32,000 bases of DNA from NCBI GenBank assembly GCA_963692945.1, contig OY843585.1, positions 390,001 through 422,000 of the forward strand, given 5' to 3'. The stretch comes from Bdellovibrionales bacterium. Its GTDB lineage: Bacteria; Bdellovibrionota; Bdellovibrionia; Bdellovibrionales; UBA1609. Below, in pieces: positions 11,215 to 28,743 of this stretch. The translations under genes were made by a program, and so were the position numbers. Each line of letters begins with the position of its first letter. Within the stretch, counting starts at the first letter, position 1. Below the pieces are notes generated by a model, which did no database searches, was not told the DNA's origin, and worked only from the letters and a program-made list of their open reading frames with translations.

Positions 11215-11291
11215 GGGGGCTTAGCTTAGTTGGTTAAAGCATCCGGCTCATAACCGGAGGATCGAAGGTTCGAGTCCTTCAGCCCCTACCA
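11215..11291 (+). tRNA. tRNA-Met (anticodon CAT), encoded CCA; a lysidine-modified tRNA-Ile2 cannot be excluded
   Basis: Hand-folded cloverleaf. Acceptor gggggct/agcccct (G1-U72 wobble), D stem gctt/aagc, anticodon stem tccgg/ccgga with loop CTCATAA, T stem gaagg/ccttc with loop ttcgagt, then A73 and CCA. It lacks the three consecutive G-C pairs of an initiator. Confidence 0.9.
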
Positions 11292-11294
11292 CTT
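11269..11294 (+). repeat. att-like direct repeat copy A (3' end of tRNA-Met plus 3 nt)
   Basis: ttcgagtccttcagcccctaccactt; identical 26-mer at 13314-13339 and an 18-nt core at 16011-16028. Confidence 0.85.
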
Positions 11295-11435
11295 GCCTCT
11301 TGAAACCCCTATGTTACTTAGCTTTTATGTTCTATTTTTTCACTCGCTGTGATTTGTCTGGAATGAGCGTGAAACTGCGGGAAATTCTGGGGAAAAACAT
11401 GGTTGTTAGTTATTGATTTTACTTAGTTTTTTCCG

Positions 11436-11467
11436 TTTTTCTAGGTTTTTATAAAACCCTTTTGTCA
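11436..11467 (+). repeat. 32-nt direct repeat R32, copy 1
   Basis: tttttctaggtttttataaaacccttttgtca, identical to 15979-16010, where it directly abuts att copy C. Confidence 0.85.
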
Positions 11468-11514
11468 CGTCTAAATAGTAGTGACTGCTGTTACATCCCG
11501 TTACATGTCTTAAC

Positions 11515-11589
11515 CTATTGAAATAACTAGGTTTTTAATGAATTTCTAGCTATAAAAATGTGGAGAAATTACATAAATTATGCCCAAAA
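11515..11589 (+). repeat. imperfect ~75-nt direct repeat, copy a (orphan gene-tail relic)
   Basis: Aligns with 11718-11793 (ctattGaaataaCtagGtttttAatgaatttct..cataaattatgcccaaaa). On the minus strand it ends in ..FWA-stop, like the real C-terminus of the 473-aa gene. Confidence 0.7.
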
Positions 11590-11717
11590 AGACATTTTTT
11601 TATATTTTAAATATTTTTTCTTAAAACCCAGCCTAACTTTCAAAAGCCTATAGCCTATATTTACAGTTAATTTGAATTTAAAGGCTTAAATAACATTGGT
11701 TTCTTACATACTTTGAT

Positions 11718-11793
11718 CTATTAAAATAATTAGATTTTTGATGAATTTCTGGGCTACTATATAAATATAAAATCATATAAATTATGCCCAAAA
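11718..11793 (+). repeat. imperfect ~75-nt direct repeat, copy b (overlaps the 3' end of the 473-aa CDS)
   Basis: See copy a. It covers the stop codon and last codons (..PFWA-stop) of CDS 11782-13203 plus its downstream flank. Confidence 0.7.
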
Positions 11794-13203
11794 TGGAATA
11801 TAAGAGCTATTGTCATTTTTCTTTTTTATCATTTGATATTCTATAGATTCTCTGATTACTTTAGACACCATTGTATATTTTTTTTCTTCTACTCCAAATC
11901 TTTTTCTTAAAGTTGTATTAGTCATTTTTTTATCTGAAACCCATTGCAAACACGCATGTTGGTAACAAGCTCTTACTCGTTCTTCTTTACTCATTTTAGA
12001 AAACGGCTTTGTTGCAAAAAGAGTTGTAATTGTAGAAAATTGAGTTTTACGAAAATCTGGAGCAGGTAACTGATAAAGTTCGGTTTGTGTAATAACTTTA
12101 TCTATACCACTTCCACGTTTTTCAGAGATATTTATTCTCCTCATAAAATCTACAAGTAATTCATTTCTTGATTTAGAAGGTTCATCTATAAAACGAAGAG
12201 TGTCAATAAGTGGTGTACCAGCATTAGAAATATCAATTCTGTTAGAGAATATTTCAATCATTGGGTTAGAACCTTGAAGATAAAAATCTTGATGTATAAG
12301 AGCATTAGCCACAAGTTCTCGAACAGCAGGTAAAGGAAACATTGATACTTCTTGTCTTAAAGCTCTTTTAATTTCTTCATTTTTGGGAACTTGGCTATCA
12401 ATATATTCAACTATGTTTTCAAATTCTATAGCATACCCTCGTTTAAAATGTTTTTCCCTTACTCCCTTAGTTTTATCAGAGCCAGCATAAACAATCACTC
12501 TTGGCACTTTATGCCTAAGAGAGTGAAAATGACCTAAGTCATGGCTGAACAAAAGTGCACCTAAATTTGTTATACTATAATTACTAAAGCTATTTTTTGT
12601 GACGATTTTTTCAGTTTCTAAACGTTCTAATATAGAAGCATGATTTTCTGGAATAGTTTGGTTAATTTTTCTAAAGTAGTTTGAATAGTCAATAAGATTT
12701 AAAACTTCAGAAGGTTCTATATTTCCAAGAGCTATATCTTCTTCAAAAGTTTTAGTTTCAAAGACTTTCCAAAGATTTCTTTCTTTTTCAGGATAATCTT
12801 TTAATTTTTTTGTGTAGCTACCGACACGAATATAATCAGTTTCTTTAAATCTTGTAGGTTGTATTCTTGCTGGGGAAATTTTAAAAATCACAATTCTTTT
12901 TGCATCAATAATTTCTTCGTGAATAGAAAAATTTATCTGAGATCCAAGTAATTTTAAAAGCCAATTTTCTAATTCTTCATTACCAACTTTATATTCTTTA
13001 GGTTTGAAATTAGTTCCAATAAATTGTTTATTATTATCAACACCCCATACTATATAACCCTGACCTTTATTTAATAAAGTTACTGTATTTGAAATAGCTG
13101 ATATGTTTTCTCCTATAGTATCAGGTTCAATATTGTCTTTTTTAAACTCTAACCATTCAGATTCTGAAGATTTAATAAGAGATCTAATTTGTAATTCAGT
13201 CAT
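11782..13203 (-). CDS. AlbA_2 (Schlafen-like) / HATPase_c_4 / C-terminal wHTH putative transcriptional regulator (RecG-like ATP-binding protein family)
   Basis: N-terminal SESEWLEFKKD..IGENISAISNT..GQGYIVWGVDN matches the AlbA_2 pattern. AVRELVANALIHQDFYLQGSNPMIEIFSNRIDISNAGTPL matches the HATPase_c_4 pattern. The C-terminal TNTTLRKRFGVEEKKYTMVSKVIRESIE looks like a wHTH. Confidence 0.7.
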   Translation of the reverse strand: MTELQIRSLIKSSESEWLEFKKDNIEPDTIGENISAISNTVTLLNKGQGYIVWGVDNNKQFIGTNFKPKEYKVGNEELENWLLKLLGSQINFSIHEEIIDAKRIVIFKISPARIQPTRFKETDYIRVGSYTKKLKDYPEKERNLWKVFETKTFEEDIALGNIEPSEVLNLIDYSNYFRKINQTIPENHASILERLETEKIVTKNSFSNYSITNLGALLFSHDLGHFHSLRHKVPRVIVYAGSDKTKGVREKHFKRGYAIEFENIVEYIDSQVPKNEEIKRALRQEVSMFPLPAVRELVANALIHQDFYLQGSNPMIEIFSNRIDISNAGTPLIDTLRFIDEPSKSRNELLVDFMRRINISEKRGSGIDKVITQTELYQLPAPDFRKTQFSTITTLFATKPFSKMSKEERVRACYQHACLQWVSDKKMTNTTLRKRFGVEEKKYTMVSKVIRESIEYQMIKKKNDNSSYIPFWA

Positions 13204-13313
13204 AGCACAATCTTTATACTCTCTTTTACTTTCTAGTTTAAGTTTTATTACAATGGTTTTTCAATTTCTATAAAATCTAATTTTTTGTTTAAAGGGTTAT
13301 TAACTAAAATCTC

Positions 13314-13339
13314 TTCGAGTCCTTCAGCCCCTACCACTT
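13314..13339 (+). repeat. att-like direct repeat copy B
   Basis: Perfect 26-nt copy of 11269-11294. No cloverleaf upstream, so this is a tRNA 3' fragment only. Confidence 0.85.
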
Positions 13340-13383
13340 TGATTTGTAACTTTATTATCTTCATAGATAGAAAAGCAAAAATT

Positions 13384-13713
13384 TTAGTCCAGTACTCCAT
13401 CCATCCAAAGAAAGAATCGCTCGGATATTGTTAAATGGTGAGCAGGGTTATCTTTTAAGAACTGAGCTGTTTTCCGATGACCATTCCAATAAGCCAAATA
13501 AAAAGCTGTGACAGTCTCATCTCGTTTAGCATTCACATCAGCTCCTTCATTAATTAATTTTTCAACAGTGTCTAATTGACCAGTGTAAGAAGCTAATAAT
13601 AAATCTTTGTTTCTATCATTTTGAATAGTATTTTCTTGAATAGTTTGGCGTGATTTAGGAAAAGCTTGAAATATTCCAGAAAAAATAAATAGTAATATCA
13701 ATAGTTTTTTCAT
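13384..13713 (-). CDS. small secreted ankyrin-repeat protein
   Basis: Signal peptide MKKLLILLFIFSGIFQAFP, then LLLASYTGQLDTVEKLINEGADVNAKRDETVTAFYLAYWNGHRKTAQFLKDN, which fits the ankyrin consensus (..G..D.V..Li..GADvNa.. / ..a...Gh...a..L). Confidence 0.7.
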   Translation of the reverse strand: MKKLLILLFIFSGIFQAFPKSRQTIQENTIQNDRNKDLLLASYTGQLDTVEKLINEGADVNAKRDETVTAFYLAYWNGHRKTAQFLKDNPAHHLTISERFFLWMDGVLD

Positions 13714-13763
13714 AAAATCCTCCGTTTTAGAGATAATATTTAGAGGTAATAAATTTTTTTAGC

Positions 13764-14087
13764 TTAGTCTTTTATGCTCTTGAATGCCATGTAACAATTT
13801 CCAACTCCAATTGATAATAATATTGCTCCAAGATAGGGTGAAGCAGAATTCGCCATTTCGAGACCCATAACCGACGCTCCGAGACCAAGATTAAATCCTC
13901 CAACAGTTGCTGCAAATACCCCCACACCAACCTGAAACCCAGGTTTGTCCATAAGTTGGTTAATTGCATCTGTGGTTGATTGATTCTTCTCTATACTTTG
14001 ACTTTCAGATGCATTAGAAAAACCAAGAGTTGGAAATCCAACGGCAAAAACAAAAGCGAATAAATAAGTAAAAAGTTTAAATTTCAT
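13764..14087 (-). CDS. secreted glycine-zipper small protein, paralog 1 (107 aa)
   Basis: Start moved to the ATG at 14087, preceded by SD AAGGGGG. Sec signal MKFKLFTYLFAFVFAVGFPTLGFS, then a Gly/Ala-rich mature part with GxxxG-type spacing (GVGVFAATVGGFNLGLGASVMGLE..YLGAILLSIGVGNCYMAFK). Paralogs at 16484-16828 and 16947-17295. Confidence 0.65.
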   Translation of the reverse strand: MKFKLFTYLFAFVFAVGFPTLGFSNASESQSIEKNQSTTDAINQLMDKPGFQVGVGVFAATVGGFNLGLGASVMGLEMANSASPYLGAILLSIGVGNCYMAFKSIKD

Positions 14088-14199
14088 TGAGAACCCCCTT
14101 TGATTAAATAACTCAATATACATTGAATACTAAATGAAAGTAGAAATGTAAAGCGGAACTTTCAGAAGAAAGCCTTTAAAATAAGGCTTTTTTTAGTTT
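14016..14199 (-). repeat. conserved 5' module of the glycine-zipper cassette, copy 1 (promoter + leader + signal-peptide coding)
   Basis: About 184 nt, near-identical to 16757-16940 and 17224-17406. On the minus strand it holds TTTACA-17 nt-TATTCA and SD AAGGGGG. Its upstream end carries a hairpin, aaagcctt/aaggcttt (14169-14190), which reads as a T-tailed terminator on the plus strand. Confidence 0.8.
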
Positions 14200-14426
14200 G
14201 TGTCCTGAAAATCAGCCCAAAATATGTCAGAAGACTTCAGAAGAAATCTCTCTAAAGTGAGATTGTAAAAAATTGTTTCTCTAAAATCTTTATAGTTTTT
14301 AAAAATGGCAGAATCTGTTTTTTTCTGCCGTATCTCTATTTAACAACGCAACAACTTTAGCATACTTTTCTGTCATATAATTCAGAACAAGATTCAGAAA
14401 TTCATAAAAAAGTACTTTTTTTGTAG

Positions 14427-14451
14427 AAATACCTTAAAAATTAAGGTATTT
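14427..14451. promoter_or_regulatory. perfect palindrome, candidate AbiEi operator
   Basis: aaataccttaa-aaa-ttaaggtattt: 11-bp arms, 3-nt spacer. The half-site taaggtatttt recurs at 14494-14504, overlapping the abiEi SD. A TATAAT hexamer sits at 14476-14481. Confidence 0.45.
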
Positions 14452-14507
14452 TAAAGAAAAATGTTTAAAATAATGTATAATTATATTAAAATCTAAGGTA
14501 TTTTGAA

Positions 14508-15074
14508 ATGAAAGCTTATAAAAAACTACATCAAATCACTTTTAAACAAGGTGGACTTTTTACAGCTAAACAAGCTGAATCTTGTGGATATGCACGAAGC
14601 AATCATCATTATCATATCAAAACAAAAAACTGGATTAAAGAGGGCTGGGGAATTTACCGACTGGCTCACATTCCAGTTGATGAGATGACTTTTTACTGGA
14701 AATGTCTTTTGTGGAGTTGCAACAACAAAAGTGAACCTACAGCTGTTTTTTCCCATAGAACAGCCTTGAGTTTTTATGAGTTATCTGATGTTAATCCCAG
14801 TAAAGTCACAATGATAGTTTCTAAAAAATTTCAAAAACGATCCCAACCTTTTAAGATGCTACGAATATGTAAAAAGGATTTGTCAAAAAAAGATGTTCAA
14901 CAGTTTAAAGGACTTCCTGTTACAACACCTTTAAGAACATTGCTGGATATGTATGAAGAAGAATCTCTTCCTGAGAGTGTTATGGAACAGGCTGTGAAAG
15001 AAGCATTGGAAAAAGGTCTCATTAGAAAATCTGATCTCAAAAAAAACTCTGAACTAGCGAGGTTTTCTCTTTGA
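14508..15074 (+). CDS. abiEi: type IV toxin-antitoxin system AbiEi-family antitoxin
   Basis: N-terminal wHTH pattern GGLFTAKQAESCGYARSNHHYHIKTKNWIKEGWGIYRLA. 4-nt overlap with the downstream AbiEii gene. Confidence 0.75.
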   Translation: MKAYKKLHQITFKQGGLFTAKQAESCGYARSNHHYHIKTKNWIKEGWGIYRLAHIPVDEMTFYWKCLLWSCNNKSEPTAVFSHRTALSFYELSDVNPSKVTMIVSKKFQKRSQPFKMLRICKKDLSKKDVQQFKGLPVTTPLRTLLDMYEEESLPESVMEQAVKEALEKGLIRKSDLKKNSELARFSL

Positions 15075-15940
15075 AACCTGTAGATAAATATAAAACTGCG
15101 GCAGACTTCCGTAGGGCTGTAAAAAACAAATTGAATGAGATCAGTCAGAATACAGGACAGGATATTCAAAGACTTTATCGTCAAACATCCTATGTTCAAT
15201 TTTTAGCAAGGCTATTTTTAGATGATAATGTTTCTTGGGTATTAAAAGGAGGTCACGCTTTAGAGTTAAGATTGCAAAAATCCAGAGCAACAAAAGATAT
15301 TGATTTAGCTATGAAAGATATGGAATGGATTCATTTCAAAAAAGAGGAAAAATCATCTGCTCTTAGAGAACTGCTTTTGGAAAAATCTCAAATAGACCTT
15401 GAAGATTATTTTCAATTTAAAATTTCTAAACCTATTTTATCTTTGTATGGTGCTCCTTATGGTGGAATTAGGTTTCATATTGAAGCAATGATTGATGGTA
15501 AAACATTCAGTAAATTTTTAATAGATATTGGTATTGGGGATGCTTGGATAGAACCTCAGGACACTCTTCAATTATTAAGTCATTTGGAAGAACTAGGTTT
15601 AAAAAACTTTACAATAAAAGTTATTCCTATTGAGCATCATATCGCTGAAAAAATACATGCTTTAACTCTTCCACGAGATGCGGTTAACTCCAGAGTTAAA
15701 GATCTAGTTGATTTATTTTTAATATTTAAATTTGAGAAGTTTTCCAAAGAGAAGACCAAGGATTGTATAAAAGAAACTTTTATTAAAAGGAATACTCATA
15801 AAATTCCTATAAAGCTTCCACTTCCAAATGTATCATGGGAAAAACCTTTTAATAGTATGGTGGATTCGATTGACGAAAAAATCACTATGCATGAAGCTTT
15901 TAAGATCGTTAATCAGTATTTTAAATCTCATTTGTCCTAA
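15071..15940 (+). CDS. abiEii: AbiEii/AbiGii-family nucleotidyltransferase toxin
   Basis: TTG start overlapping the abiEi stop. FLARLF..WVLKGGHALELRL..SRATKDIDLA is the DUF1814/AbiEii nucleotidyltransferase signature. 289 aa is the typical size. Confidence 0.85.
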   Translation: MKPVDKYKTAADFRRAVKNKLNEISQNTGQDIQRLYRQTSYVQFLARLFLDDNVSWVLKGGHALELRLQKSRATKDIDLAMKDMEWIHFKKEEKSSALRELLLEKSQIDLEDYFQFKISKPILSLYGAPYGGIRFHIEAMIDGKTFSKFLIDIGIGDAWIEPQDTLQLLSHLEELGLKNFTIKVIPIEHHIAEKIHALTLPRDAVNSRVKDLVDLFLIFKFEKFSKEKTKDCIKETFIKRNTHKIPIKLPLPNVSWEKPFNSMVDSIDEKITMHEAFKIVNQYFKSHLS

Positions 15941-15978
15941 TTTCATCTTGATCTTAAGAAAATTAAAACCTTTATAGT

Positions 15979-16010
15979 TTTTTCTAGGTTTTTATAAAAC
16001 CCTTTTGTCA
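15979..16010 (+). repeat. 32-nt direct repeat R32, copy 2
   Basis: Identical to 11436-11467; immediately followed by att copy C. Confidence 0.85.
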
Positions 16011-16028
16011 GTCCTTCAGCCCCTACCA
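16011..16028 (+). repeat. att-like direct repeat copy C (18-nt core)
   Basis: gtccttcagcccctacca, identical to 11275-11292 within the tRNA 3' end. Confidence 0.8.
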
Positions 16029-16123
16029 TTTTCAAAACTCTAGTTCTTCTCTTCTTACTTTTTGAGTTTTCATCGTAAGAGGGACACTCTTTTACAAAAC
16101 TCTCGTTCAAAAAAATATTTCCT

Positions 16124-16187
16124 ACTCTTATTCTAACGAGTTTTCATCGTAGGAGGGATACTCTTCAAATCTCGTTAGAATAAGAGT
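16124..16187. repeat. 17-bp perfect inverted repeat (long stem-loop)
   Basis: actcttattctaacgag (16124-16140) and ctcgttagaataagagt (16171-16187), separated by 30 nt. The loop contains the second copy of the gagttttcatcgta(a/g)gaggga(c/t)actctt motif. Confidence 0.8.
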
Positions 16188-16214
16188 TACTTAATAGGTT
16201 TATTGTGTGAACGA

Positions 16215-16380
16215 GAGAAAACCTACTGGTTTTCGCATGAGTGAGGCAGAGAAAACCTACTGGTTTTCTTTCGCATGTAATGAGGTAGGAAAAACTTCTG
16301 TTTTTCGCATGTGGGGACGCTCTTCAAATCTCGTTAAAATAAAAGTTTTAACATAGAGAAAAACTTCTGTTTTTCGCATG
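16215..16380. repeat. array of four short hairpin repeats (GAAAAYC-tNct-GRTTTTC-GCATG)
   Basis: Hairpins at 16217-16234 and 16251-16268 (gaaaacc-tact-ggttttc) and at 16289-16306 and 16358-16375 (gaaaaac-ttct-gtttttc). Three are followed directly by gcatg; in the second, four extra nucleotides precede it. The C-G to A-T change in the stem is compensated. Spacing is irregular (34, 38, 69 nt). Confidence 0.8.
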
Positions 16381-16483
16381 AGTGAGCGAAAGATAAATGA
16401 TTTTAAGAGAAACCTTTTGAGAGCTTAAAAACCCAACTAAAAAGGAACTTACAAACTTAATAAAAATAAAATAATTTACTAAT

Positions 16484-16828
16484 CTACAACGGGAGAGCTT
16501 TTTTAGCTTTCATCCCTTGACCCTTGAATACATTATAACACATCTGTATTCCAAGTGTAGCAAGTAAGGTTCCCATTGTTGCCTGTATTACTGGTAACAC
16601 AACAGGCATGCTCGAACCTAATTCTATTGCTATTACTCCTGCTGTTGCAAAACCCATCGAACCTACCCCTGCACCTATAGCTCCTATCCCTAAAAGTTTA
16701 TTCGCTGTGGAAAGTTTTTCTTCTTTTTCAACTGTATCTTTTTTTTCAGATACATCAGAAAAACCAAGAGTTGGAAATCCAACGGCAAAAACAAAAACGA
16801 ATAGATAAGTAAAAAGTTTAAATTTCAT
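16484..16828 (-). CDS. secreted glycine-zipper small protein, paralog 2 (114 aa)
   Basis: Start at the ATG at 16828 behind SD AAGGGGG. Signal MKFKLFTYLFVFVFAVGFPTLGFS, then a divergent Gly/Ala-rich mature region LLGIGAIGAGVGSMGFATAGVIAIELG..TLLATLGIQMCYNVFKG. Confidence 0.65.
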   Translation of the reverse strand: MKFKLFTYLFVFVFAVGFPTLGFSDVSEKKDTVEKEEKLSTANKLLGIGAIGAGVGSMGFATAGVIAIELGSSMPVVLPVIQATMGTLLATLGIQMCYNVFKGQGMKAKKALPL

Positions 16829-16940
16829 TGAGAACCCCCTTTGATTAAATAACTCAATACACATTGAATACTAAATCAAAGTAGAGATGTAAAGAGGAAC
16901 TTTCAGAAGAAAGCCTTTAAAATCAAGGGTTTTTTAGTTT
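16757..16940 (-). repeat. conserved 5' module of the glycine-zipper cassette, copy 2
   Basis: Near-identical to 14016-14199. Putative promoter on the minus strand: -35 TTTACA (16893-16888), 17-nt spacer, -10 TATTCA (16870-16865). Confidence 0.8.
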
Positions 16941-16946
16941 AGTTTT

Positions 16947-17295
16947 TTATTCCTTGAATGCCAAGTAACAACCTATAGCTCCAGCTGATAATCCTACTGT
17001 TGCTCCAATTGTATAGAATAAAGAAGGTTCCACATGCGGCAGTACGATACCAAGATAGGGTGCAACAGAATTCGCCGTTTCGAGACCAAGATATGCCGCT
17101 CCGAGACCAAGATTAAATCCTCCAAATGCCCCCGCACCCAAAAGAAACAGTTTTTTCCATAAGGTGGTTAATTTCATCTACGGTTGATTGATTCTTCTCT
17201 ATACTTTGACTTTGAGATTCATTAGAAAAACCAAGAGTTGGAAATCCAACGGAAAAAACAAAAACGAATAAATAAGTAAAAAGTTTAAATTTCAT
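16947..17295 (-). pseudogene. glycine-zipper small protein paralog 3, frame disrupted in an A6 run
   Basis: ORF-track entries 17113-17295 (signal peptide + linker) and 16947-17177 (GGFNLGLGAAYLGLE..CYLAFKE) are the two halves of one paralog of 13764-14087. The frames switch at T6/A6 (17151-17156). Removing one A gives a continuous 115-aa ORF (..INHLMEKLFLLGAGAFGGFNLG..). Confidence 0.7.
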
Positions 17296-17406
17296 TGAGA
17301 ACCCCCTTTGATTAAATCAACAACAAAACTATGTATTTAATACTAAATCAAAGTAGAGATGTAAAGAGGAACTTTCAGAAGAAAGCCTTTAAAATCAAGG
17401 GTTTTT
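17224..17406 (-). repeat. conserved 5' module of the glycine-zipper cassette, copy 3
   Basis: Near-identical to the other two modules, except for a substituted ~20-nt stretch in the leader (17318-17338). Confidence 0.75.
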
Positions 17407-17551
17407 CAATATTATTACTCATTAATGCAGGGTGTTTTTATTTAAAAGAGTAGTCTTTCTTAAGAGCTATTTATCCCGATTATCAAAAACAGATATCTTA
17501 AGAATTGAAAAAATATTTTAAGAAATCTTTTTGAAAAAATTAAAATTTATT

Positions 17552-18889
17552 TTATAAAAAATTAGATTTACAACCAGATCTATCTAAAGAAAATAGATCT
17601 TTGATTTGGTTATAAAGTTCTGTCCCTTTTTTATGATTTTGTTGTTTGGATTTTTCTGTCCAATAAAAAGCAGTTTGAAAATTTTGTACAACTCCTTCAC
17701 CATTGTAATACATCAACGCCAACCTGTATTGAGCAAAAGGATAATTTTGCTGAGCCGCTTTTTCAAACCATTTAAGAGATTCTTCTAAATTTTTTGGGAC
17801 ACCTTCGCCATTGTAATACATCAATGCCAATTCAGATTGGGCGATCACATAACTTTGTTCGGCTGCTTTTTTAGTGTATTCAAAAGCGGTTTCTAAATTT
17901 TTTTGGACACCTTTGCCTTTGTAATACATCCATCCCAACCAATGTTGAGCAGGAGCATAATTTTGCTCAGTTGCTTTTTTAATCCATTTAAAAGATTCTT
18001 GAAAATTTTGTGTTACTCCTTCACCAAAATAATACATTATTCCCAAATCATATTGAGCAGGAATATAATTTTGTTCGGCTGCTTTTTTTAAATATTTAAA
18101 AGCTTCTTCTAGATTTTTATTTACTACTGCACCTGCATAATGTATCTGTCCAAGATTGTATGTAGCCAGAACATCATTTTCTTTAACCCTATCTTCTAAT
18201 TGATTTAAAAATTCTTTTTTGCATTGGAGGAAACTTTTATTGCAATCTTGCTTTATCATTTTTGTAATGACTTCTTTGAGACGAATTATTTTTGTCATAG
18301 ACCCTATGTAATTTTCGCTTTTAAAATGCACTCCAACAACTTGCCCTTGCTTGTCTAAAACAGGACTCCCACTTGCCCCCCTTAAAGGATAATGACTTAT
18401 AGGGTAAGAATATAAATAATTATCTTTATAAATAGCATCTCCTGTTTTCCTTACTCTTTTAAAAAGACCATCGGGATAACCAGAGATAAAAAGATTTTCA
18501 TTGGTTTCCACAGGTTCTTCTCTTAGCTTGAGATAGTCGTTGGAAGATTCTTTTGTTTCAATAAGAGCAAGGTCATGTAATGCAAAGACAGCAAGAATTT
18601 TTTTTACATGTATCTTAGAGAGATGATCTTTTTGAGTGAGATGGATTTCTTGTTCCTTAGAGTCTTTTAATAAATAATCTATCACATGAAAGTTTGTGAT
18701 GAAATGATTTGGACTTATAAAGAATCCTGTTCCACCAAAAAGCTTTGAAGTTTTTAGACTCCATATTGCTCTTTCTACTTTTGAAAGATAAGTTTCAAGA
18801 GCTGAGAGTTGAGCCTTTTGAGGTAAAATATTTTGAGCGAAAGATAGAACAGAAAAACTCAACAAAAGAAAAACAATAAAAAATTTCAT
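17552..18889 (-). CDS. secreted trypsin-like (S1) serine protease fused to C-terminal Sel1 (SLR/TPR-like) repeats
   Basis: Signal MKFFIVFLLLSFSVLSFA. Catalytic triad contexts GTGFFISPNHFITNFHV (His), HDLALIE (Asp) and GASGSPVLDKQGQVVGVH (Ser). These are followed by about five Sel1 units (e.g. AQYDLGIMYYFGEGVTQNFQESFKWIKKATEQNY). Confidence 0.8.
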   Translation of the reverse strand: MKFFIVFLLLSFSVLSFAQNILPQKAQLSALETYLSKVERAIWSLKTSKLFGGTGFFISPNHFITNFHVIDYLLKDSKEQEIHLTQKDHLSKIHVKKILAVFALHDLALIETKESSNDYLKLREEPVETNENLFISGYPDGLFKRVRKTGDAIYKDNYLYSYPISHYPLRGASGSPVLDKQGQVVGVHFKSENYIGSMTKIIRLKEVITKMIKQDCNKSFLQCKKEFLNQLEDRVKENDVLATYNLGQIHYAGAVVNKNLEEAFKYLKKAAEQNYIPAQYDLGIMYYFGEGVTQNFQESFKWIKKATEQNYAPAQHWLGWMYYKGKGVQKNLETAFEYTKKAAEQSYVIAQSELALMYYNGEGVPKNLEESLKWFEKAAQQNYPFAQYRLALMYYNGEGVVQNFQTAFYWTEKSKQQNHKKGTELYNQIKDLFSLDRSGCKSNFL

Positions 18890-19029
18890 ATAACAACCTT
18901 TATTAAAAGGAGTTACATAATTAACACATACTAAGATAAAATCAATTTTTTTAGGGAATTATATATGTACTCACCCTAAAAAACCTCTTTTTTTCTAGGC
19001 AAACGATAATAAAATAATAAGCTATTAAA

Positions 19030-20052
19030 CTACAGCTGGTATTCAAAACCGATGGAAACCATCGGATTGCTGCTGAAAGAGTTTCCTTTATAGAAAAGAT
19101 TTTTAGGACATACTACTTTATTTTTTTCTTCAGCTTTAGGAAAAATAGGTCGGTTAATTCCAGAAATAACATTACATTGTGCTTTGGCTCGACTAAATGG
19201 AACAAGACTGACTTCAACTGTTGAAGCAAGATGTTTTGTCCACCAGTATTTAGCTCCAACGAAAACCTGAAAATATTTTAATACAGTTGCTCCAGACCCT
19301 TTTCTGTAGGGGCCAGATAAATCTGTTTCTTCTACTGTTTCATTTTCATCACTCACCTGTAATTCATTGTTCACTTGTAATACATCATTTAATCCTATTT
19401 TTTCTACTCCTACTTCTTCTACTGTTTCTACTGATTCATTATCATGTCGCCAACCTAGATCAGATGATCTTGATGCTTTTCTACCAAAAAAAATGTCAAA
19501 CACTTTAAGGATACTGGAGACACTTTTAACTATACCATCTTCCATATCTTCAAAACTAAACACTTCTGTATGTCTTACTCCCCCAAAGGGTTCAAAGACT
19601 TTCTTATTTTTTAATTTCATTTTATGACTCGCTAAAAGAGCTCCACTGAGATAACCTCTTGCTAATGAAAAAAATAGAGATTCCCCTGTAGGAGGATCTC
19701 CTTTTATATATCCAGTTCCTAAAGAACCCCCAAAAGACCAACCCATTTTTTGATTATTAACAGGAGCATATTTCAATTGAAGTCCTATGTTTTCTGGAGA
19801 TTCCATTTGAATTCCTATATCTACATTATTTAAAACCCCATAATCATATCTTAATTGTCCTATTGCATTGTAGGTTATGTTGTTTGGACCTTGTTTTAAG
19901 GTGGTAGGGAGTGGATTTAACGATGCTCTTACACTGTGATTTCGTTTTCCAAGAGTACGCGCTGTATCTCCGTTTGAAACAGGACCAATGGGTTCTAACT
20001 GAACACAACCTAAAATAAATAAACTTAATAAAATTAAAAGATATTGTTTCAT
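19030..20052 (-). CDS. hypothetical lipoprotein, possibly outer-membrane beta-barrel-like
   Basis: Lipobox MKQYLLILLSLFILGC. Alternating beta-strand-like segments, an acidic insert (DNESVETVEEVGVEKIGLNDVLQVNNELQVSDENETVEETD) and a C-terminal ..VSIGFEYQL. Confidence 0.55.
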   Translation of the reverse strand: MKQYLLILLSLFILGCVQLEPIGPVSNGDTARTLGKRNHSVRASLNPLPTTLKQGPNNITYNAIGQLRYDYGVLNNVDIGIQMESPENIGLQLKYAPVNNQKMGWSFGGSLGTGYIKGDPPTGESLFFSLARGYLSGALLASHKMKLKNKKVFEPFGGVRHTEVFSFEDMEDGIVKSVSSILKVFDIFFGRKASRSSDLGWRHDNESVETVEEVGVEKIGLNDVLQVNNELQVSDENETVEETDLSGPYRKGSGATVLKYFQVFVGAKYWWTKHLASTVEVSLVPFSRAKAQCNVISGINRPIFPKAEEKNKVVCPKNLFYKGNSFSSNPMVSIGFEYQL

Positions 20053-20129
20053 GAATTCTCCTTATTTTTGAAGTTAATCTATTATAGATAGGAGAATGGC
20101 CTTTTTTTGTCAATTGTTTTTTTAAGGCT

Positions 20130-21824
20130 TTAGAAAACTTGTCTACATAAAACTCTATTAGGTGCACCATAATTAGTTTTTCTGTTTTTTGATTTTTGAG
20201 ATAGACTTTGTGTTTCTAAATTTTTTAAGGTTCTTGCTCTTTTAACTAATTTTTTATTTCCAATAGTCCTTAGGAAATAGCTATTTAAGATTTTTAAGAT
20301 ATTTCTACCTTCAGTTTGTTTTTTATTTGATAAAATGGATGTCCATTTTGGAACATGATAGAGATTTTGAGCCAATGTTTGATCTAGTACAAGTAAGAAT
20401 AAAGATTTTACTTGTCTCACTGGTTTCCAGTTTTTATTTATGAGATATAAAAGTTCATTATCTTTAACTTTTAAATTGGAACTGATTTGTGGGGAATAAA
20501 TTTTTTTATGTCTTTTTAAAAGATTGGCAAGAGAAAAATATAAGCTTTCAAGTTCTTCCCCTGTGACATACAAGGTGTGTACATTTTGATTCTTTGGGTA
20601 AAAAGTGCTTATTAAATTAGAATCAATCAATGTTTTTTCCCTAATAAAATCATTTCTTTGATAAAGGTTACTATCTAAAAAAACAGCTATATAGGTTTTA
20701 GTTTGATAAATCTTTTCCATGGGAATTTCTCTATAAGCCCATAGCCTTAATGTCTCTGCTAATAGAGTTCCTAAAATGGTTCTCCGATTTAAAAAGGCTT
20801 TTCTGTTATCCATCAAATGTCTTGGAATGAATTTATTAGATTGAAATCTTTTATATTCAATAGCATGAACAACGGGTTTAATTTTATCAGTGATTATTTT
20901 AGACTCTAAACTTGTCTCATCTATTTTACTAAGTAAATATCTTCTTTTTTCTTGATCATAAAAAGTGCTATCTATAATTTGACCTTCATCATCTAAAAGG
21001 ACAGAAGTGAAATTAAAAAAATCTCCAGAGCTAATCATCCGTGAATTTCTGAATTCTATATTTTTTACAGCATGATGATGTCCTAAAAAGATGGCAGAAA
21101 TTTTATGAGTCATGTCCTCAGAACAACATCTCAATTTACGATCTAATTTTTTAAAATGATTACTTACAGCTGAAGATCCTTCGTGAAAAGCTAACACCAG
21201 AGAAGAGATCAAAGAATTTTTATGAGTCTCTTTGATTACACTGTAAAGTCTTTCTTCAATGGGATAAAAACTTGTAAAAACTTTTGGTTTTAAATATTTA
21301 TTCCATCCACTTTTTTGAGGAAAATTGGATAAAGTGAATCCAGCAAAACGAACCGATTTCTCCCCCAGAGGAATATCTACAAATTTTGCAAAAAGATTTT
21401 TAAATTTGTGAACAAAATTGGCATTGGCGGCTAAAAGGTGTACTCCTGCCTCTTTCAACAAACTCATTTGATTTATAAATAAATTTGTATCCTTCCAGTC
21501 AAAAGCTTCGTGATTTCCAAATACAAAAACCACTTCATATTTTTGAGCCAATTGACTTAGAACCTCATAACCCAGCTGACCTTTGTCTCCCTCAGTCCAA
21601 ATGCTTTTTGAAGAATAGTCCCCGTTAATTAAAATCAGCACTTTACCATTAGGGTAGGAGCTTTTAAACTCCCGAGATAAAACTTCAACAGAAGCTACAA
21701 AACTCATCATTTGTCTGTATTCAGAGTGTTGATCAGAACTTTGGATGACCAACAGTTCAGCAAAGACATAAGAGTGAAAGGAAAATAAGAAATAGAGTAA
21801 AATGCTAATACTAGATAATTTCAA
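20130..21824 (-). CDS. secreted calcineurin-like metallophosphoesterase (5'-nucleotidase-like N-domain)
   Basis: Motifs SDQHS, NGDYS, GNHEAFDW and LGHHH. The ORF-track start (21905) gives an odd N-terminus. TTG at 21824 gives (M)KLSSISILLYFLFSFHSYVFA, a good signal peptide. The start is uncertain. Confidence 0.7.
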   Translation of the reverse strand: MKLSSISILLYFLFSFHSYVFAELLVIQSSDQHSEYRQMMSFVASVEVLSREFKSSYPNGKVLILINGDYSSKSIWTEGDKGQLGYEVLSQLAQKYEVVFVFGNHEAFDWKDTNLFINQMSLLKEAGVHLLAANANFVHKFKNLFAKFVDIPLGEKSVRFAGFTLSNFPQKSGWNKYLKPKVFTSFYPIEERLYSVIKETHKNSLISSLVLAFHEGSSAVSNHFKKLDRKLRCCSEDMTHKISAIFLGHHHAVKNIEFRNSRMISSGDFFNFTSVLLDDEGQIIDSTFYDQEKRRYLLSKIDETSLESKIITDKIKPVVHAIEYKRFQSNKFIPRHLMDNRKAFLNRRTILGTLLAETLRLWAYREIPMEKIYQTKTYIAVFLDSNLYQRNDFIREKTLIDSNLISTFYPKNQNVHTLYVTGEELESLYFSLANLLKRHKKIYSPQISSNLKVKDNELLYLINKNWKPVRQVKSLFLLVLDQTLAQNLYHVPKWTSILSNKKQTEGRNILKILNSYFLRTIGNKKLVKRARTLKNLETQSLSQKSKNRKTNYGAPNRVLCRQVF

Positions 21825-22096
21825 AAAACCTTCTTTTAAGATGAAAGTGCATCTAATTGGAATTCTATTCGGTTTTAGATAGAGTTTAAATAAGATAATA
21901 ATCAAGATGCATCATTTTAAATGAGAATCAGAAAAACGAGATGTTTTTTGAATATTTTGTTAAGTCAGTGCTTATATTTTTGTCTTTTTTTTAAAATATC
22001 TTAAAAAAAGGGTTGAATAAAATAGGAGCTACCTTCTAAGTTTATTTGCATTTGAATAGGGAAAATTCAAAGCAATGATGGATGTTTTTGTATTTC

Positions 22097-22561
22097 TTAA
22101 TCTTCAATTCTAACCCAAAACTTATTTATAGAATTGGAATTATCTTTGAAAGATATTTTTACTTGGATAGGGAAAGATCTCCAAGCGAGAACATTGAGTT
22201 TTTTTATTTCAATCGGAAATTTCTGATGAAGAGGAAGATAGTGACCCTTAAAAAAACTCCATTCCACTTTTTTGACTTGTTTTTCATTGATAGAATCAGA
22301 GACAGAAAGTGTGACCAAGACTTGAGGATAAAGGAGGTGTTTTTTTATCCATTCAGGAAGATATGAACTACGAAGTGACTTTTTTGTGATTTCCACTTCA
22401 TTTCCTTTATAAGTAACAATAGGAGGAGGTCTAATTTTATGACTTAAATCATGAAATGGAGGTACTTTTTGTATAACAGTTACAACTTCTTCTATGGGAG
22501 ATTCTAAACTCAAGCTAGAAAAAGGACTTAAAATAAAAAATAATAAAAGAATGTATTTCAT
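22097..22561 (-). CDS. hypothetical secreted protein, tandem paralog A
   Basis: Start moved to the ATG at 22561 (SD GAGGT; one nucleotide, 22562, separates it from the upstream stop codon). Signal MKYILLLFFILSPFSSLS. The C-terminal half aligns with paralog B (VKKVEWSFFKGHY.P..VLAWRSFPIQVKISFKDNS versus VKAVEWEFFEEYYFP..VTAWQPFAVGMKLSFEDNS). Confidence 0.6.
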   Translation of the reverse strand: MKYILLLFFILSPFSSLSLESPIEEVVTVIQKVPPFHDLSHKIRPPPIVTYKGNEVEITKKSLRSSYLPEWIKKHLLYPQVLVTLSVSDSINEKQVKKVEWSFFKGHYLPLHQKFPIEIKKLNVLAWRSFPIQVKISFKDNSNSINKFWVRIED

Positions 22562-22562
22562 T

Positions 22563-23099
22563 TTACCTCGGATCAAGTTCAATCCAAAGCAGATGTGCTT
22601 CAAAAGAATTGTCTTCAAAACTTAACTTCATTCCAACTGCAAAAGGCTGCCAAGCAGTGACTTCAATTTGTCTGGTGTTAATTGGATGATATTGTGAGCT
22701 GGAAGGAAAATAATACTCTTCAAAAAATTCCCATTCAACAGCTTTCACATGTTTTCCGTTGAAAAAATAAGGAGCTAAAAGTGTGATGATTCTTTTTTGT
22801 TTGTGTATAGTAATATGTTGCCAGAATCTGGTAATCTCTAAAGGTGTTCGATTGATCTTGATAATCCCATCGGGGCTTCTACTCCTTGCTTGCACAAGAT
22901 CTTCTATGAGATTCTTATACGAGTCAGGAAGCAAAGGCTTACCTTGTTTAATCTTAATAATGGGAGAGTCTTTTAAATCCTCTTCGGTTGGATAGAGTGC
23001 AACATAAGAATCTGAAGAATCTGAAACATCTTTAGTTGAATGTACGCCCCAAGAAAAAGGACTTAAAATAAAAAATAATAAAAGAATGTATTTATACAT
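22563..23099 (-). CDS. hypothetical secreted protein, tandem paralog B
   Basis: Start moved to the ATG at 23099 behind SD AGGAG. Signal MYKYILLLFFILSPFSWGVHS. The signal-peptide DNA is almost identical to that of paralog A (22520-22560 versus 23058-23098). Confidence 0.6.
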   Translation of the reverse strand: MYKYILLLFFILSPFSWGVHSTKDVSDSSDSYVALYPTEEDLKDSPIIKIKQGKPLLPDSYKNLIEDLVQARSRSPDGIIKINRTPLEITRFWQHITIHKQKRIITLLAPYFFNGKHVKAVEWEFFEEYYFPSSSQYHPINTRQIEVTAWQPFAVGMKLSFEDNSFEAHLLWIELDPR

Positions 23100-23305
23100 G
23101 GTATCTCCTGTAAATAAGTTTTTATATGTATAAATGTTTTTCTTCACAATATCAAATGAAAATATTATAGTTTTCCTGATTTATAGATGTTTTTTCAATT
23201 TTTTAAGGGTTTTTAAGTCAAAAAATAAAAAAATGTTAAGTAATAGGTTATAATTTTACTATTAACAGGCAGGCTTTTATTCCATTTCTAATTTTTCTTT
23301 TTACA

Positions 23306-23827
23306 ATGGTTGCTTCTTTAGCCTACGGAGAAACGACTTATCTTTCTTGTTCTGTGAATAATGGTGCAGATATGCTTATTTCTTATAAGCAAGAGAAAGA
23401 TAAAATTCTTTATCTTGGAGGTCTTGTTCATTCTCGTAAACCACAGCTTATGGGGAGAAAAGATCATTTTGTGTATTTTATTTGGAAAAATCATCCAGAG
23501 AATCCAAACCATAGCTACACTATTGAAAGAATAGAATTTTCTAAGAAGATCATCTTTATCCGGTCTCATGTTTTCATAGATGATGTGGTCATTCACAAAA
23601 AAAGAAAAGAAGAGGCTAAACACAATCCCTACTCTTTTATTAATCCTAAAAGATATAAAAAAGTTTATAATCCTAATTTATTGAAACTCATTCCCTATCG
23701 TTTGAAAAAAAACGAACGAGCTTTTGCTTTTGACCGAGATCATTATCCCTGTAAAAGACTTTCTTATTTTATATATCTCTTAAGAATCCCTTTGAATATT
23801 TTGGCTCAAATTGGATTTTCAGGTTAG
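23306..23827 (+). CDS. hypothetical protein (start uncertain)
   Basis: 173-aa ORF with no recognised motifs. The in-frame upstream sequence would complete a signal peptide (see findings). Confidence 0.45.
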   Translation: MVASLAYGETTYLSCSVNNGADMLISYKQEKDKILYLGGLVHSRKPQLMGRKDHFVYFIWKNHPENPNHSYTIERIEFSKKIIFIRSHVFIDDVVIHKKRKEEAKHNPYSFINPKRYKKVYNPNLLKLIPYRLKKNERAFAFDRDHYPCKRLSYFIYLLRIPLNILAQIGFSG

Positions 23828-23923
23828 GTAGAGAATTAGTAAAATGAGTTTTAGAAACTGACTTTAGAACAAGAACCTGGATTAAAACAGGCAACCTTTT
23901 TTTAAAGATATAGACAAAAAAAT

Positions 23924-24994
23924 TTAAGACCAAGATTGCCAATAATTTTCAATTTCAAGTTCTTTAAGTTGGGAATGTTGTTTTAAAGATTGTTTTGAGT
24001 CTATCATGACAGCACATTCATTTGTCCAAGTTTTATCTTTTATTTTTTCAATTGCTTTTGGATGAGGTCCATGAGGAAATCCTGGAGGATGAAAACTCAT
24101 CATACCAGCATGAAGATGATCTCGGCTAAAAAAATCTCCGTCATGATAAAAAAGCACTTCATCATAGTCTGTATTTTGATGATAAAAAGGAACTTTTAAA
24201 GCATCTTTATCTTGCTCTAAAGGCCTTGGAAGAAAACTACAAACAATAAACTCTTTTGTTACAAAAGTAGAGTGGATGCTTGGTGGAAGATGAACGCGAT
24301 GACTCATAACAGGCATAATGTCATTCATATCTAGGGTGTAAGGAAATAAATCTCCTTTCCATTCTACAACATCAAATAAGCACTCTTTATAAGTGAATAT
24401 GGTTTTTTGATCTTGATGATGAACAATCATTTTTTTAAACTCTAATTTGTTGTTTTTCAAATAGTTGTTGAGAGATTTTAAATCAGGACGAATCAAAGAA
24501 TCCGAATCATAGAGGCCATGTCGTCCGAGAAGTCCTCTGTCTGGAGATTGAAAATGACTTTTCAAACTTTCTACAACAAAGAAACTTGAATTTTGAGAAG
24601 GTATAAAAACATGGCTAAAAGATTTAGGAATAACAATGTATTGTCCAGAGTGATAGTTTAGTAATCCATACTCTGTAAGAACAACACCTTCTCCTTTGTG
24701 ACAAAAGTACAAAAGATCTCCATTTGCATTTTTAAAGAGTTCTGAGGAGTGTCCCTTGCAATTTAAAAAATTAATTTTTAAATTGTCATTATAGAGAAGT
24801 GGTTTCCATGTTTGTAGATTGTTTTTTGAAACCAAGTCAAACATTCTAGGTTTTAAAGAACCGTCAATATGACTCCATCTTGTACTTGGATTTTTCCGTA
24901 TCAGATGAGAGACAGGTCCATAAAATCCATCTTGTCCTTGTTCCTCTTCAAAGAAACCTTTTGGGATGTTTTTGTGAGGCTGTCTTTTTTTCAT
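23924..24994 (-). CDS. hmgA: homogentisate 1,2-dioxygenase (short cupin-type)
   Basis: PFYHQNTDYDEVLFYHDGDFFSRD and GMMSFHPPGFPHGPHP give the His/Glu/His metal-ligand contexts of HGO. ATGA overlap with hppD; pathway context. Confidence 0.82.
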   Translation of the reverse strand: MKKRQPHKNIPKGFFEEEQGQDGFYGPVSHLIRKNPSTRWSHIDGSLKPRMFDLVSKNNLQTWKPLLYNDNLKINFLNCKGHSSELFKNANGDLLYFCHKGEGVVLTEYGLLNYHSGQYIVIPKSFSHVFIPSQNSSFFVVESLKSHFQSPDRGLLGRHGLYDSDSLIRPDLKSLNNYLKNNKLEFKKMIVHHQDQKTIFTYKECLFDVVEWKGDLFPYTLDMNDIMPVMSHRVHLPPSIHSTFVTKEFIVCSFLPRPLEQDKDALKVPFYHQNTDYDEVLFYHDGDFFSRDHLHAGMMSFHPPGFPHGPHPKAIEKIKDKTWTNECAVMIDSKQSLKQHSQLKELEIENYWQSWS

Positions 24995-28334: not shown

Positions 28335-28356
28335 GGTTAAGCCCTAGAGCTTAACC
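28335..28356. terminator. bidirectional hairpin terminator between the 143-aa CDS and rnpB
   Basis: ggttaagc (28335-28342) / gcttaacc (28349-28356) with a 6-nt loop. On the minus strand it is followed by tttttaatttt (good terminator for rnpB); on the plus strand by ttt then an A-run (weaker). Confidence 0.6.
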
Positions 28357-28374
28357 TTTAAAAAAACCATCTTT

Positions 28375-28703
28375 TACAGGAAAAACGATAAGCCGGATTC
28401 TGTCTTTCTTTTTCCGATGGTGAGAAAAAAGAGAAGTAATCATCCATCTTGGAGTTTTGTTACCAAAACCCTCTTGCGATCCACCCGAAAGATAAAACTG
28501 TTGGCAGCAGTATGTCTTTCTTATTTGATCTCGCTCCCTATAGAGTTTAGCTGATTTCACCCCAGCCAAACCTTTTGGTTTGCTGGGTATTCTTTCTGTT
28601 CCACTTTTCCTCACCTTTCGGTGGAAGGGTGTTACCCTTTATATTGCCAAAGGAGTCCGGACTTTCCTCTTTACTAAAAAGTAAAGCGATCACTTGTTTT
28701 TCC
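28375..28703 (-). ncRNA. rnpB: RNase P RNA, bacterial type A (ends +/- 10 nt)
   Basis: Minus strand contains GAGGAAAGTCCGGACTCC (P4 5' strand), GGTAACACCC, GTGGAACAGAAAGAATACC, GGGGTGAAATCAG, GGTAACAAAACTCC, CAAGATGGATGATTAC and ACAGAATCCGGCTTATCG (P4 3' strand), in the same order as E. coli M1 RNA. Terminal P1 pairing ggaaaaac (28703-28696) / gtttttcc (28386-28379). Confidence 0.92.
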
Positions 28704-28743
28704 AATTTTGAATGTAATATAAAAAGAATTAAAATTCAATCTT

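Follow-up and report, generated by a model that had tools for sequence, protein, structure and literature searches.

We propose, at a little short of an even chance, that the non-coding stretch 16029-16400 is a lineage-specific and partly decayed tandem repeat, minisatellite-like in character, which lies in an old tRNA-Met trailer and has no dedicated partner or specific function. Coordinates refer to the window, the whole 32,000-nt stretch of DNA that was analysed. The stretch carries clustered repeats with perfect short palindromes between the ends of two convergent genes. No partner gene was found for it in the window, and no relative of its units was found in the collections searched.

Results

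Anatomy of the array

Four perfect 7-4-7 hairpins of two types, each in two copies, were detected in the array (Table 1), where 0.12 matches to the pattern were expected and no shuffle reached four. The word GCATG lies directly 3' of three of them and, in the second copy, behind a TTTC insertion, just as the first-pass annotation had described. A second motif noted there was likewise recovered: 16064-16091 and 16138-16165 are 93% identical over 28 nt, and the right part of the motif at 16155-16188 returns as a partial third copy at 16314-16347 (88% over 34 nt). The inverted repeat enclosing the second of these copies (arms 16124-16140 and 16171-16187) is perfect over 17 bp, and its extended arms reach 21 nt at 95%. 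The GAGTTTT/AAAACTC 7-mers reported earlier were found at 16034, 16064, 16096, and 16138, in local excess, and CTCGTT/AACGAG is also locally enriched, with five occurrences within 235 nt as compared with 16 in the whole window. Overall, the repeat motifs are far above chance. Folded as single-stranded DNA, the 64-nt palindrome of A2 reached -15.6 kcal/mol (z = -7.4), and the single hairpins gave modest values of -5 to -7 kcal/mol.

Table 1 Repeat units, hairpins, and tRNA-Met copies, with positions in the window
Feature	Position	Strand	Detail
tRNA-Met	11215-11291		
Islet-bounding tRNA-Met 3'-end repeats	11269-11294, 13314-13339, 16006-16031		
att3, third copy of the tRNA-Met 3' end	16006-16031	+	19-nt core 16010-16028; left edge of the array
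Unit A0, tRNA trailer TTTTCAAAACTCTAGTTC, quasi-palindrome	16029-16046	+	16/18 positions match the right part of A1
Unit A1, GAGTTTTCATCGTAAGAGGGACACTCTTTTACAAAACTCTCGTTC	16064-16108	+	nhmmer E = 4e-12
Unit A2, in the 64-nt palindrome	16124-16187	.	Arms 16124-16144 and 16167-16187; motif copy 16138-16176
Unit B1	16214-16247	+	Hairpin 16217-16234, GCATG 16235-16239, tail AGTGAGGC; -6.1 kcal/mol
Unit B2, head to tail with B1	16248-16286	+	Hairpin 16251-16268, insertion TTTC 16269-16272, GCATG 16273-16277
Unit B3, running into unit A3 (GGGGACGCTCTTCAAATCTCGTTAAAATAAAAGTTTT)	16287-16349	+	Hairpin 16289-16306, GCATG 16307-16311
Unit B4	16355-16392	+	Hairpin 16358-16375, GCATG 16376-16380
Hairpin type GAAAACCTACTGGTTTTC	16217-16234 and 16251-16268		
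Hairpin type GAAAAACTTCTGTTTTTC	16289-16306 and 16358-16375		

Tandem Repeats Finder reported 2.6-2.8 head-to-tail copies at 16214-16312, with a period of 34-38 and 78-81% matches. Units B1, B2, and B3 adjoin with 1-nt gaps, and B3 continues straight into the A-type right half GGGGACGCTCTTCAAATCTCGTTAAAATAAAAGTTTT. Both profile models matched at 16287-16349 (A model, nhmmer E = 2e-12; B model, E = 5e-8), and we infer that this is the sole full-length copy of an ancestral unit of about 65-70 nt. The kinship of the two unit types is also seen where the left part of A, GAGTTTTCATCG, aligns with GCATG and the right B arm that precedes it, and in the 70% match over 91 nt between the stretch from the right part of A2 through B1 and that from the right part of A3 through B4. 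Autocorrelation within the array peaked at 34, 69-72, 99, and 141 nt. The modules follow each other in the order A-A-B-B-B/A-B, the B units contain indels, and the condition of the units ranges from perfect to barely recognisable. Judged from these alignments, the four items that the first-pass annotation had listed look like variants of one repeat unit and not independent features. We read the array as about seven or more copies, in the same orientation, of a unit of ~35 or ~70 nt that would have decayed unevenly.

At the left end, A0 aligned with the right part of A1 with a local score of 26, which 0/1000 shuffles reached, and the same trailer sequence weakly resembled the B hairpin (p about 0.05). 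At the right end, B4 is overlapped by an alternative weak terminator-like stem, TTTCGC/GCGAAA. A near-repeat of 11-12 nt, AAAACCCTTTTG (15996-16007) and GAAACCTTTTG (16409-16419), brackets att3 together with the entire array and may be a chance occurrence in AT-rich DNA.

The view that the region has no credible open reading frame was borne out for 16029-16440. Stops are abundant in all six frames, the longest frames have 49 and 40 codons, and no Shine-Dalgarno sequence was seen upstream of these two when the sequence was inspected by eye. Small protein genes and a recent pseudogene were rejected on the same grounds and for the further reason that the repeat is read in differing frames.

Position in the tRNA-Met trailer

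The 19-nt 3' end of tRNA-Met occurs in the window only at 11273, 13318, and 16010, with up to 3 mismatches allowed. The third copy, att3, is followed by TTTT; the tRNA-Met of six out of six relatives, one in each, is followed by TTT or TTTT; att copies 1 and 2 are followed by CTT. Because the flank of att3 matches the trailers of the relatives, the sequence from 16029 onward is the ancestral tRNA-Met trailer, which lies beyond the last att copy on its chromosomal side. The att3 copy is, as these flanks indicate, the displaced ancestral 3' end of tRNA-Met. The earlier placement of the array directly outside the last att copy is thus correct. No further att copy was found to the right with up to 3 mismatches, and the idea that the array lies inside an element was rejected. 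Decayed att scars were also rejected as a source of the units, since only the trailer 16029-16046 resembles A1 and the 3' half of the tRNA aligned no better than shuffles.

The array is located between the convergent 3' ends of abiEii (+, ending at 15940) and of a gene for a 126-aa protein (-, ending at 16484). No gene start adjoins it, both neighbours terminating there, and the 400 nt past the array are the antisense of a real gene with paralogs. These are three paralogous small genes (13764-14123, 16484-16864, and 16947-17295), one of which is frameshifted; their proteins have a signal-peptide-like start and glycine-rich segments, and the genes share 86-94% identity at their 5' ends and in the DNA upstream of them. 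A search of 5.8 billion proteins with the flanking 126-aa protein found no homologue outside its own genome, the only match being the paralog encoded there.

Two islets separate the tRNA-Met gene from att3. Islet 1, between att copies 1 and 2, encodes a Schlafen AlbA_2/HATPase_c_4 protein, and islet 2, between copies 2 and 3, an ankyrin protein, a small glycine-rich secreted protein, and a complete AbiEi/AbiEii pair. No integrase gene was found in either islet (2.0 and 2.7 kb), and they look like cargo-only cassettes that were moved by an integrase encoded elsewhere, or relics.

Several other repeats were observed in the neighbourhood. Two tandem 52-nt units at 14422-14525, each with the palindrome ATACCTTAAAAATTAAGGTAT, overlap the start of abiEi and look like putative autoregulatory operators of AbiEi. 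A perfect 32-nt direct repeat (11436-11467 and 15979-16010) contains the palindrome GGTTTTTATAAAACC, whose half-sites are the arm words of the B hairpin in opposite order; its two copies are found 145 nt into islet 1 and, immediately adjacent to att3, at the right end of islet 2. Downstream of the Schlafen-like gene, a 93-nt direct repeat of 76% identity with internal palindromes (11501-11589 and 11704-11793) is present in non-coding DNA at the left end of islet 1. Further away, a perfect 42-nt direct repeat (22517-22558 and 23052-23093) lies inside two adjacent overlapping open reading frames of 173 and 194 aa on the minus strand. The window also contains a bacterial class A RNase P RNA (28373-28705, minus strand, 212 bits) and, at 28335, a hairpin GGTTAAGC...GCTTAACC that is conserved in two of the relatives (L001 and L002).

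Searches for relatives of the units

A search with nhmmer --max revealed no copy of the units outside the array in the remaining 31.6 kb of the window, which include about 18 intergenic spacers, nor did nhmmer find any in six syntenic loci of relatives (L001, L002, L003, L033, L034, and L036). The possibility raised earlier that the units are scattered like generic repeats was therefore not borne out within the 32-kb window, and the conservation in relatives that was to be looked for was not found either. Two seed scans of GTDB genomes gave 0 hits and 18 scattered chance hits, none of which extended. A seed scan of JGI metagenomes gave 11 unrelated single hits, which are gene starts carrying the form ATGCGAAAA on the other strand, and four scans of IMG/VR viral contigs gave no relatives, two hits being a phage gene start. 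Blastn in distant mode against phages and plasmids returned nothing useful. By its RpoD, the window belongs to an uncultured lineage that public records label Bdellovibrionales or Oligoflexia. The closest RpoD shows 89% identity, and at 90% the RpoD of the window forms a cluster with a single member. Because even the nearest relatives are distant, the absence of the units from them is weak evidence on constraint. As far as these searches can tell, the array is lineage-specific, and its absence elsewhere says nothing firm on constraint.

The six relatives keep recA-rpsU-dnaG-rpoD-tRNA-Met on one side of the locus and, where the locus reaches that far, hgmA on the other. The interval from tRNA-Met to hgmA (11215-23923 in the window) is hypervariable, and its cargo is unrelated in each relative: a Fic protein; a 1389-aa open reading frame; two trypsin-Sel1 genes with Mrr; ankyrin with trypsin; and ThiF with HATPase_c_3, a methylase, and RVT_1. 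The tRNA-Met downstream of rpsU-dnaG-rpoD is, by this comparison of loci, a hot spot of island insertion. One relative has tandem repeats of ~45 nt with palindromes (ATATTCTTGTTTAATAGAATAAATGCGAATAA...) between tRNA-Met and the Fic gene (L001, 11985-12110). They show no sequence relationship to the present array and are probably operators of the Fic gene.

Partner genes and RNA families

The open reading frames of the variable interval 11782-24994 and three flanking genes were scanned with Pfam, PADLOC, and NCBIfam. Among the scanned frames, no integrase, Rep, Par, reverse transcriptase, ToxN-like or other type III toxin, Cas, or RAYT protein was found. The Rfam comparison proposed in the first-pass annotation was made with Rfam 15 and yielded no family in the region at the gathering threshold. 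In E-value mode the lowest values were 0.12 and 0.15 (a betacoronavirus 5'UTR and a miRNA model), which are noise, with 15-21 bits against thresholds of 64-112.

Folding, base composition, and the paired change

The G+C content of the array is 34.5%, and that of its B part 38%, as compared with 20-30% in every other intergenic spacer of the window, about 21% in the spacers flanking the array, and 32% in the window. Where a genome is AT-rich, such a rise in G+C classically hints at a non-coding element under constraint. Within each hairpin type the copies share an identical core (21 and 23 nt), whereas the flanks on its 5' and 3' sides have diverged or carry indels. This combination looks like the outcome of purifying selection, gene conversion, or the insertion of a mobile hairpin, and not of uniform neutral decay. 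The high G+C and the perfectly kept cores are the sole hints of constraint.

The fold of the whole region was compared with shuffles and gave z = -7.6 on the plus strand and -4.7 on the minus strand, values which are weak evidence because internal direct and inverted repeats inflate both strands. The better fold of the plus strand would fit a plus-strand RNA. For the paralogous A units, the RNAalifold consensus reached only -4.6 kcal/mol, and the covariation term was a penalty.

The B1 hairpin is identical to that of B2 and the B3 hairpin to that of B4, and the two types differ at three positions, namely both partners of one pair and one loop base. The C-G to A-T change is, as far as the copies tell, a single event, with effectively two lineages. 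Its pair count was reached by 95/500 shuffles and is not significant, and by our own arithmetic three independent substitutions in an 18-mer have a ~5% chance of hitting one pair in a complementary manner. Template switching at replication in quasi-palindromes alters both arms at once without selection on structure; it turns imperfect palindromes perfect and is a source of multi-base compensatory changes (PMC8794818). The earlier argument that the change reveals selection on the hairpin is not upheld by these figures, and template switching can also produce such a change.

Discussion

Origin of the array and rival explanations

The reading that we tentatively favour is that a tandem repeat arose within the tRNA-Met trailer itself. 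The array would have a base period of ~35 nt and a higher-order period of ~70 nt in one orientation, starting in the ancestral trailer. All of its motifs could derive from a single quasi-palindromic ancestor, GAGAAAAC-CTNCT-GTTTTC-GCATGAGTGAGGGAC-CTCTTCAAATCTCGTTA. Local duplication, by slippage or unequal exchange, would have made the array grow, and intrastrand template switching at replication, which alters the two arms together, would have made or kept the short palindromes perfect. Two islets that lack an integrase would have inserted at tRNA-Met and so parted the tRNA from the array. At most, the units may act as generic 3' hairpins in read-through transcripts of the converging genes, abiEii on the plus strand and the 126-aa frame on the minus strand. 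We infer that the array arose through duplication and template switching and that it serves no function, and take it most probably for ordinary repeat DNA. If this is true, the array is of little importance in itself. It would illustrate the conversion of a tRNA trailer into a repeat array at a hot spot of island insertion, and the risk of reading selection into one 'compensatory' change in a palindrome.

The hints of constraint keep three other explanations alive: a low-copy dispersed palindromic family, a transcribed repeat RNA, and a relic binding-site array. The array could be a cluster of low-copy dispersed palindromic elements of the REP/BIME, BOX, or MITE type, whose mobile or amplifiable modules also occur elsewhere in the genome, which we consider unlikely. 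Such a cluster would have gathered between convergent genes, the usual site of such elements, where they can stabilise the upstream mRNA. The position between convergent 3' ends fits this explanation, as do the perfect short palindromes with sharply bounded identical cores and unrelated flanks, the 64-nt palindrome with its 17-21-bp terminal inverted repeats, and the A-A-B-B-B/A-B mosaic, an order that resembles BOX or BIME mosaics. Against it stands the lack of a further copy in 31.6 kb of the same genome and of any match in genome or metagenome collections. No RAYT or transposase gene was found in the window, a 5' GTAG stands at only one of the four hairpins, and the A2 palindrome has no target-site duplication. 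A transcribed tandem-hairpin RNA, either an orphan or relic type III antitoxin in the style of ToxI or antiQ or a sponge or decoy in a defence hot spot, is also an unlikely candidate. It would account for the three head-to-tail units of 34-38 nt, which are within the range of toxIN (PMC3401426), and for the raised G+C, the better plus-strand fold, the weak terminator-like palindrome after B4, and the defence-rich surroundings with AbiEi/AbiEii immediately upstream. A promoter-like site is present at 16091-16119, but such sites are common in AT-rich DNA (6 found, 2.9 expected). The same-strand downstream toxin gene that defines these systems is absent, the next 400 nt being antisense to a real gene, and the nearby open reading frames have no toxin match in PADLOC, Pfam, or NCBIfam. 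The units are merely 78-81% alike and carry indels. The structured small RNA considered in the first-pass annotation faces similar objections: no Rfam match and no homologue was found, the relatives show no conservation, and the paralogous A units share no fold. That a plus-strand RNA has been kept in the hot spot for use, as an orphan type III-like antitoxin or decoy against endoribonuclease toxins or as a protein sponge, is decidedly unlikely; if true, it would be a class of repeat RNA without a described family.

It is quite unlikely that the array is a relic of sites to which a dimeric DNA-binding protein attached (operators, iterons, or a sopC-like centromere) and which belonged to an older integrated element whose genes were lost or replaced. 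The four perfect 18-bp palindromes would suit this idea, the change between types is symmetrical in both half-sites, and the tRNA-hgmA interval is island material in all relatives, which would allow the DNA right of att3 to be that element's left arm. However, the operator or iteron role put forward earlier finds no gene start at the array, where both neighbours end, and no rep, par, repressor or other regulator, or integrase gene in the window. With centres 34, 38, and 69 bp apart, the palindromes are not in helical phase, and this speaks against cooperative binding by a protein. A protein site would be expected to keep its sequence and not symmetry alone, and the A-type units do not share this form of palindrome. 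A role as arm-type or accessory recombination sites, for an integrase acting from elsewhere on the tRNA-Met islets, is highly improbable. In its favour, the array adjoins the att core with no gap before the first unit. Tyrosine integrases have their arm-type sites in attP, which belongs to the element, whereas the array lies beyond the last att copy on the chromosomal (B') side, and the flank of that copy matches the tRNA trailers of six relatives; nothing similar follows att1 or att2, and the window has no integrase or other recombinase gene. The recombination site suggested in the first-pass annotation is unlikely for these reasons. Its option of decayed MITE-like repeats comes closest to our favoured reading of a decayed tandem repeat.

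To our knowledge, defence islands have yielded few tandem-repeat RNAs, of which type III antitoxins are an example, and these are defined only in combination with their toxin. The array would matter more if genome or transcript data showed it to be a discrete repeat RNA. Of greater interest, arguably, is the locus around the array, a tRNA-Met hot spot of uncultured Bdellovibrionota/Oligoflexia with defence-like cargo that differs in each relative.

Comparison with known repeat systems

Several families were rejected on specific features. CRISPR arrays alternate repeats with unique spacers at a regular period and are accompanied by cas genes; here the periods are 34, 38, 69, and 74 nt, the 'spacers' have motifs in common, and no cas gene was found. 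Integron attC sites are imperfect palindromes that terminate in R'' (RYYYAAC) and R' (GTTRRRY) and have an intI gene close by. In the array, GTTAGAA, GTTAAAA, and GTTCAAA fail at the final Y and TTCTAAC at the first R, the AAC and GTT of the A2 palindrome are inside the stem and not at its ends, and no intI is present. A MITE was considered for A2, whose terminal inverted repeats are 17-21 bp long, and was rejected for the lack of a flanking duplication and of a second copy in the window. A CsrA sponge was considered for the GGA in the inner-hairpin loops of A1 and A2; about 6 GGA were counted in 412 nt as compared with ~3.6 expected, and the inner hairpin is broken in A3.

Iteron, operator, and sopC arrays likewise comprise several 18-bp dyad-symmetric sites, which in the array lie within about 160 bp. 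Plasmid or phage iterons and a centromere (sopC/parS) were nevertheless rejected: the spacing is irregular, the hairpin centres being 34, 38, and 69 bp apart (3.2, 3.6, and 6.6 helical turns), and there is neither a rep, par, or repressor gene in the window nor a promoter to be controlled.

REP/BIME share with the array the short palindromes and the extragenic position between convergent genes. Like REP/BIME of Enterobacteria and Pseudomonas and BOX of Streptococcus pneumoniae, the array combines a few types of module in a clustered mosaic that could fold into hairpins in the 3' untranslated part of a transcript. REP/BIME have tens to hundreds of dispersed copies per genome; in the 32-kb window, no unit was found outside the array. 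REP/BIME also have a conserved 5' GTAG, which in the array precedes B3 only, the other three hairpins being preceded by GAGAG, CAGAG, or TAGAG. Moreover, REP/BIME units alternate and are associated with a RAYT transposase, whereas the units of the array appear all in one orientation, head to tail, and no Y1/RAYT-like open reading frame was found in the window.

In toxIN, the antitoxin repeats are 31-62 nt long (mean 38) and present in 1.9-5.6 copies (mean 2.8), so that the period of 34-38 and the 2.6-2.8 copies of the array are within the range of type III antitoxins (ToxI, antiQ, CptI, TenpI); a small palindrome after the repeats and a neighbourhood of defence genes are also shared (PMC3401426). 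In type III toxin-antitoxin systems a same-strand toxin gene follows the terminator, whereas no plus-strand gene follows the array, ToxN, CptN, and TenpN were not found in the window, and the units are degenerate and located between convergent genes.

Template switching is a mutational mechanism and not an element family, and it would explain the compensatory change but not the amplification of the units. Like the hairpins described for it, the array has perfect palindromes and a two-arm change that preserves pairing (PMC8794818), and an imperfect proto-palindrome, the trailer CAAAACTCTAGTTCTTC, lies beside the perfected copies.
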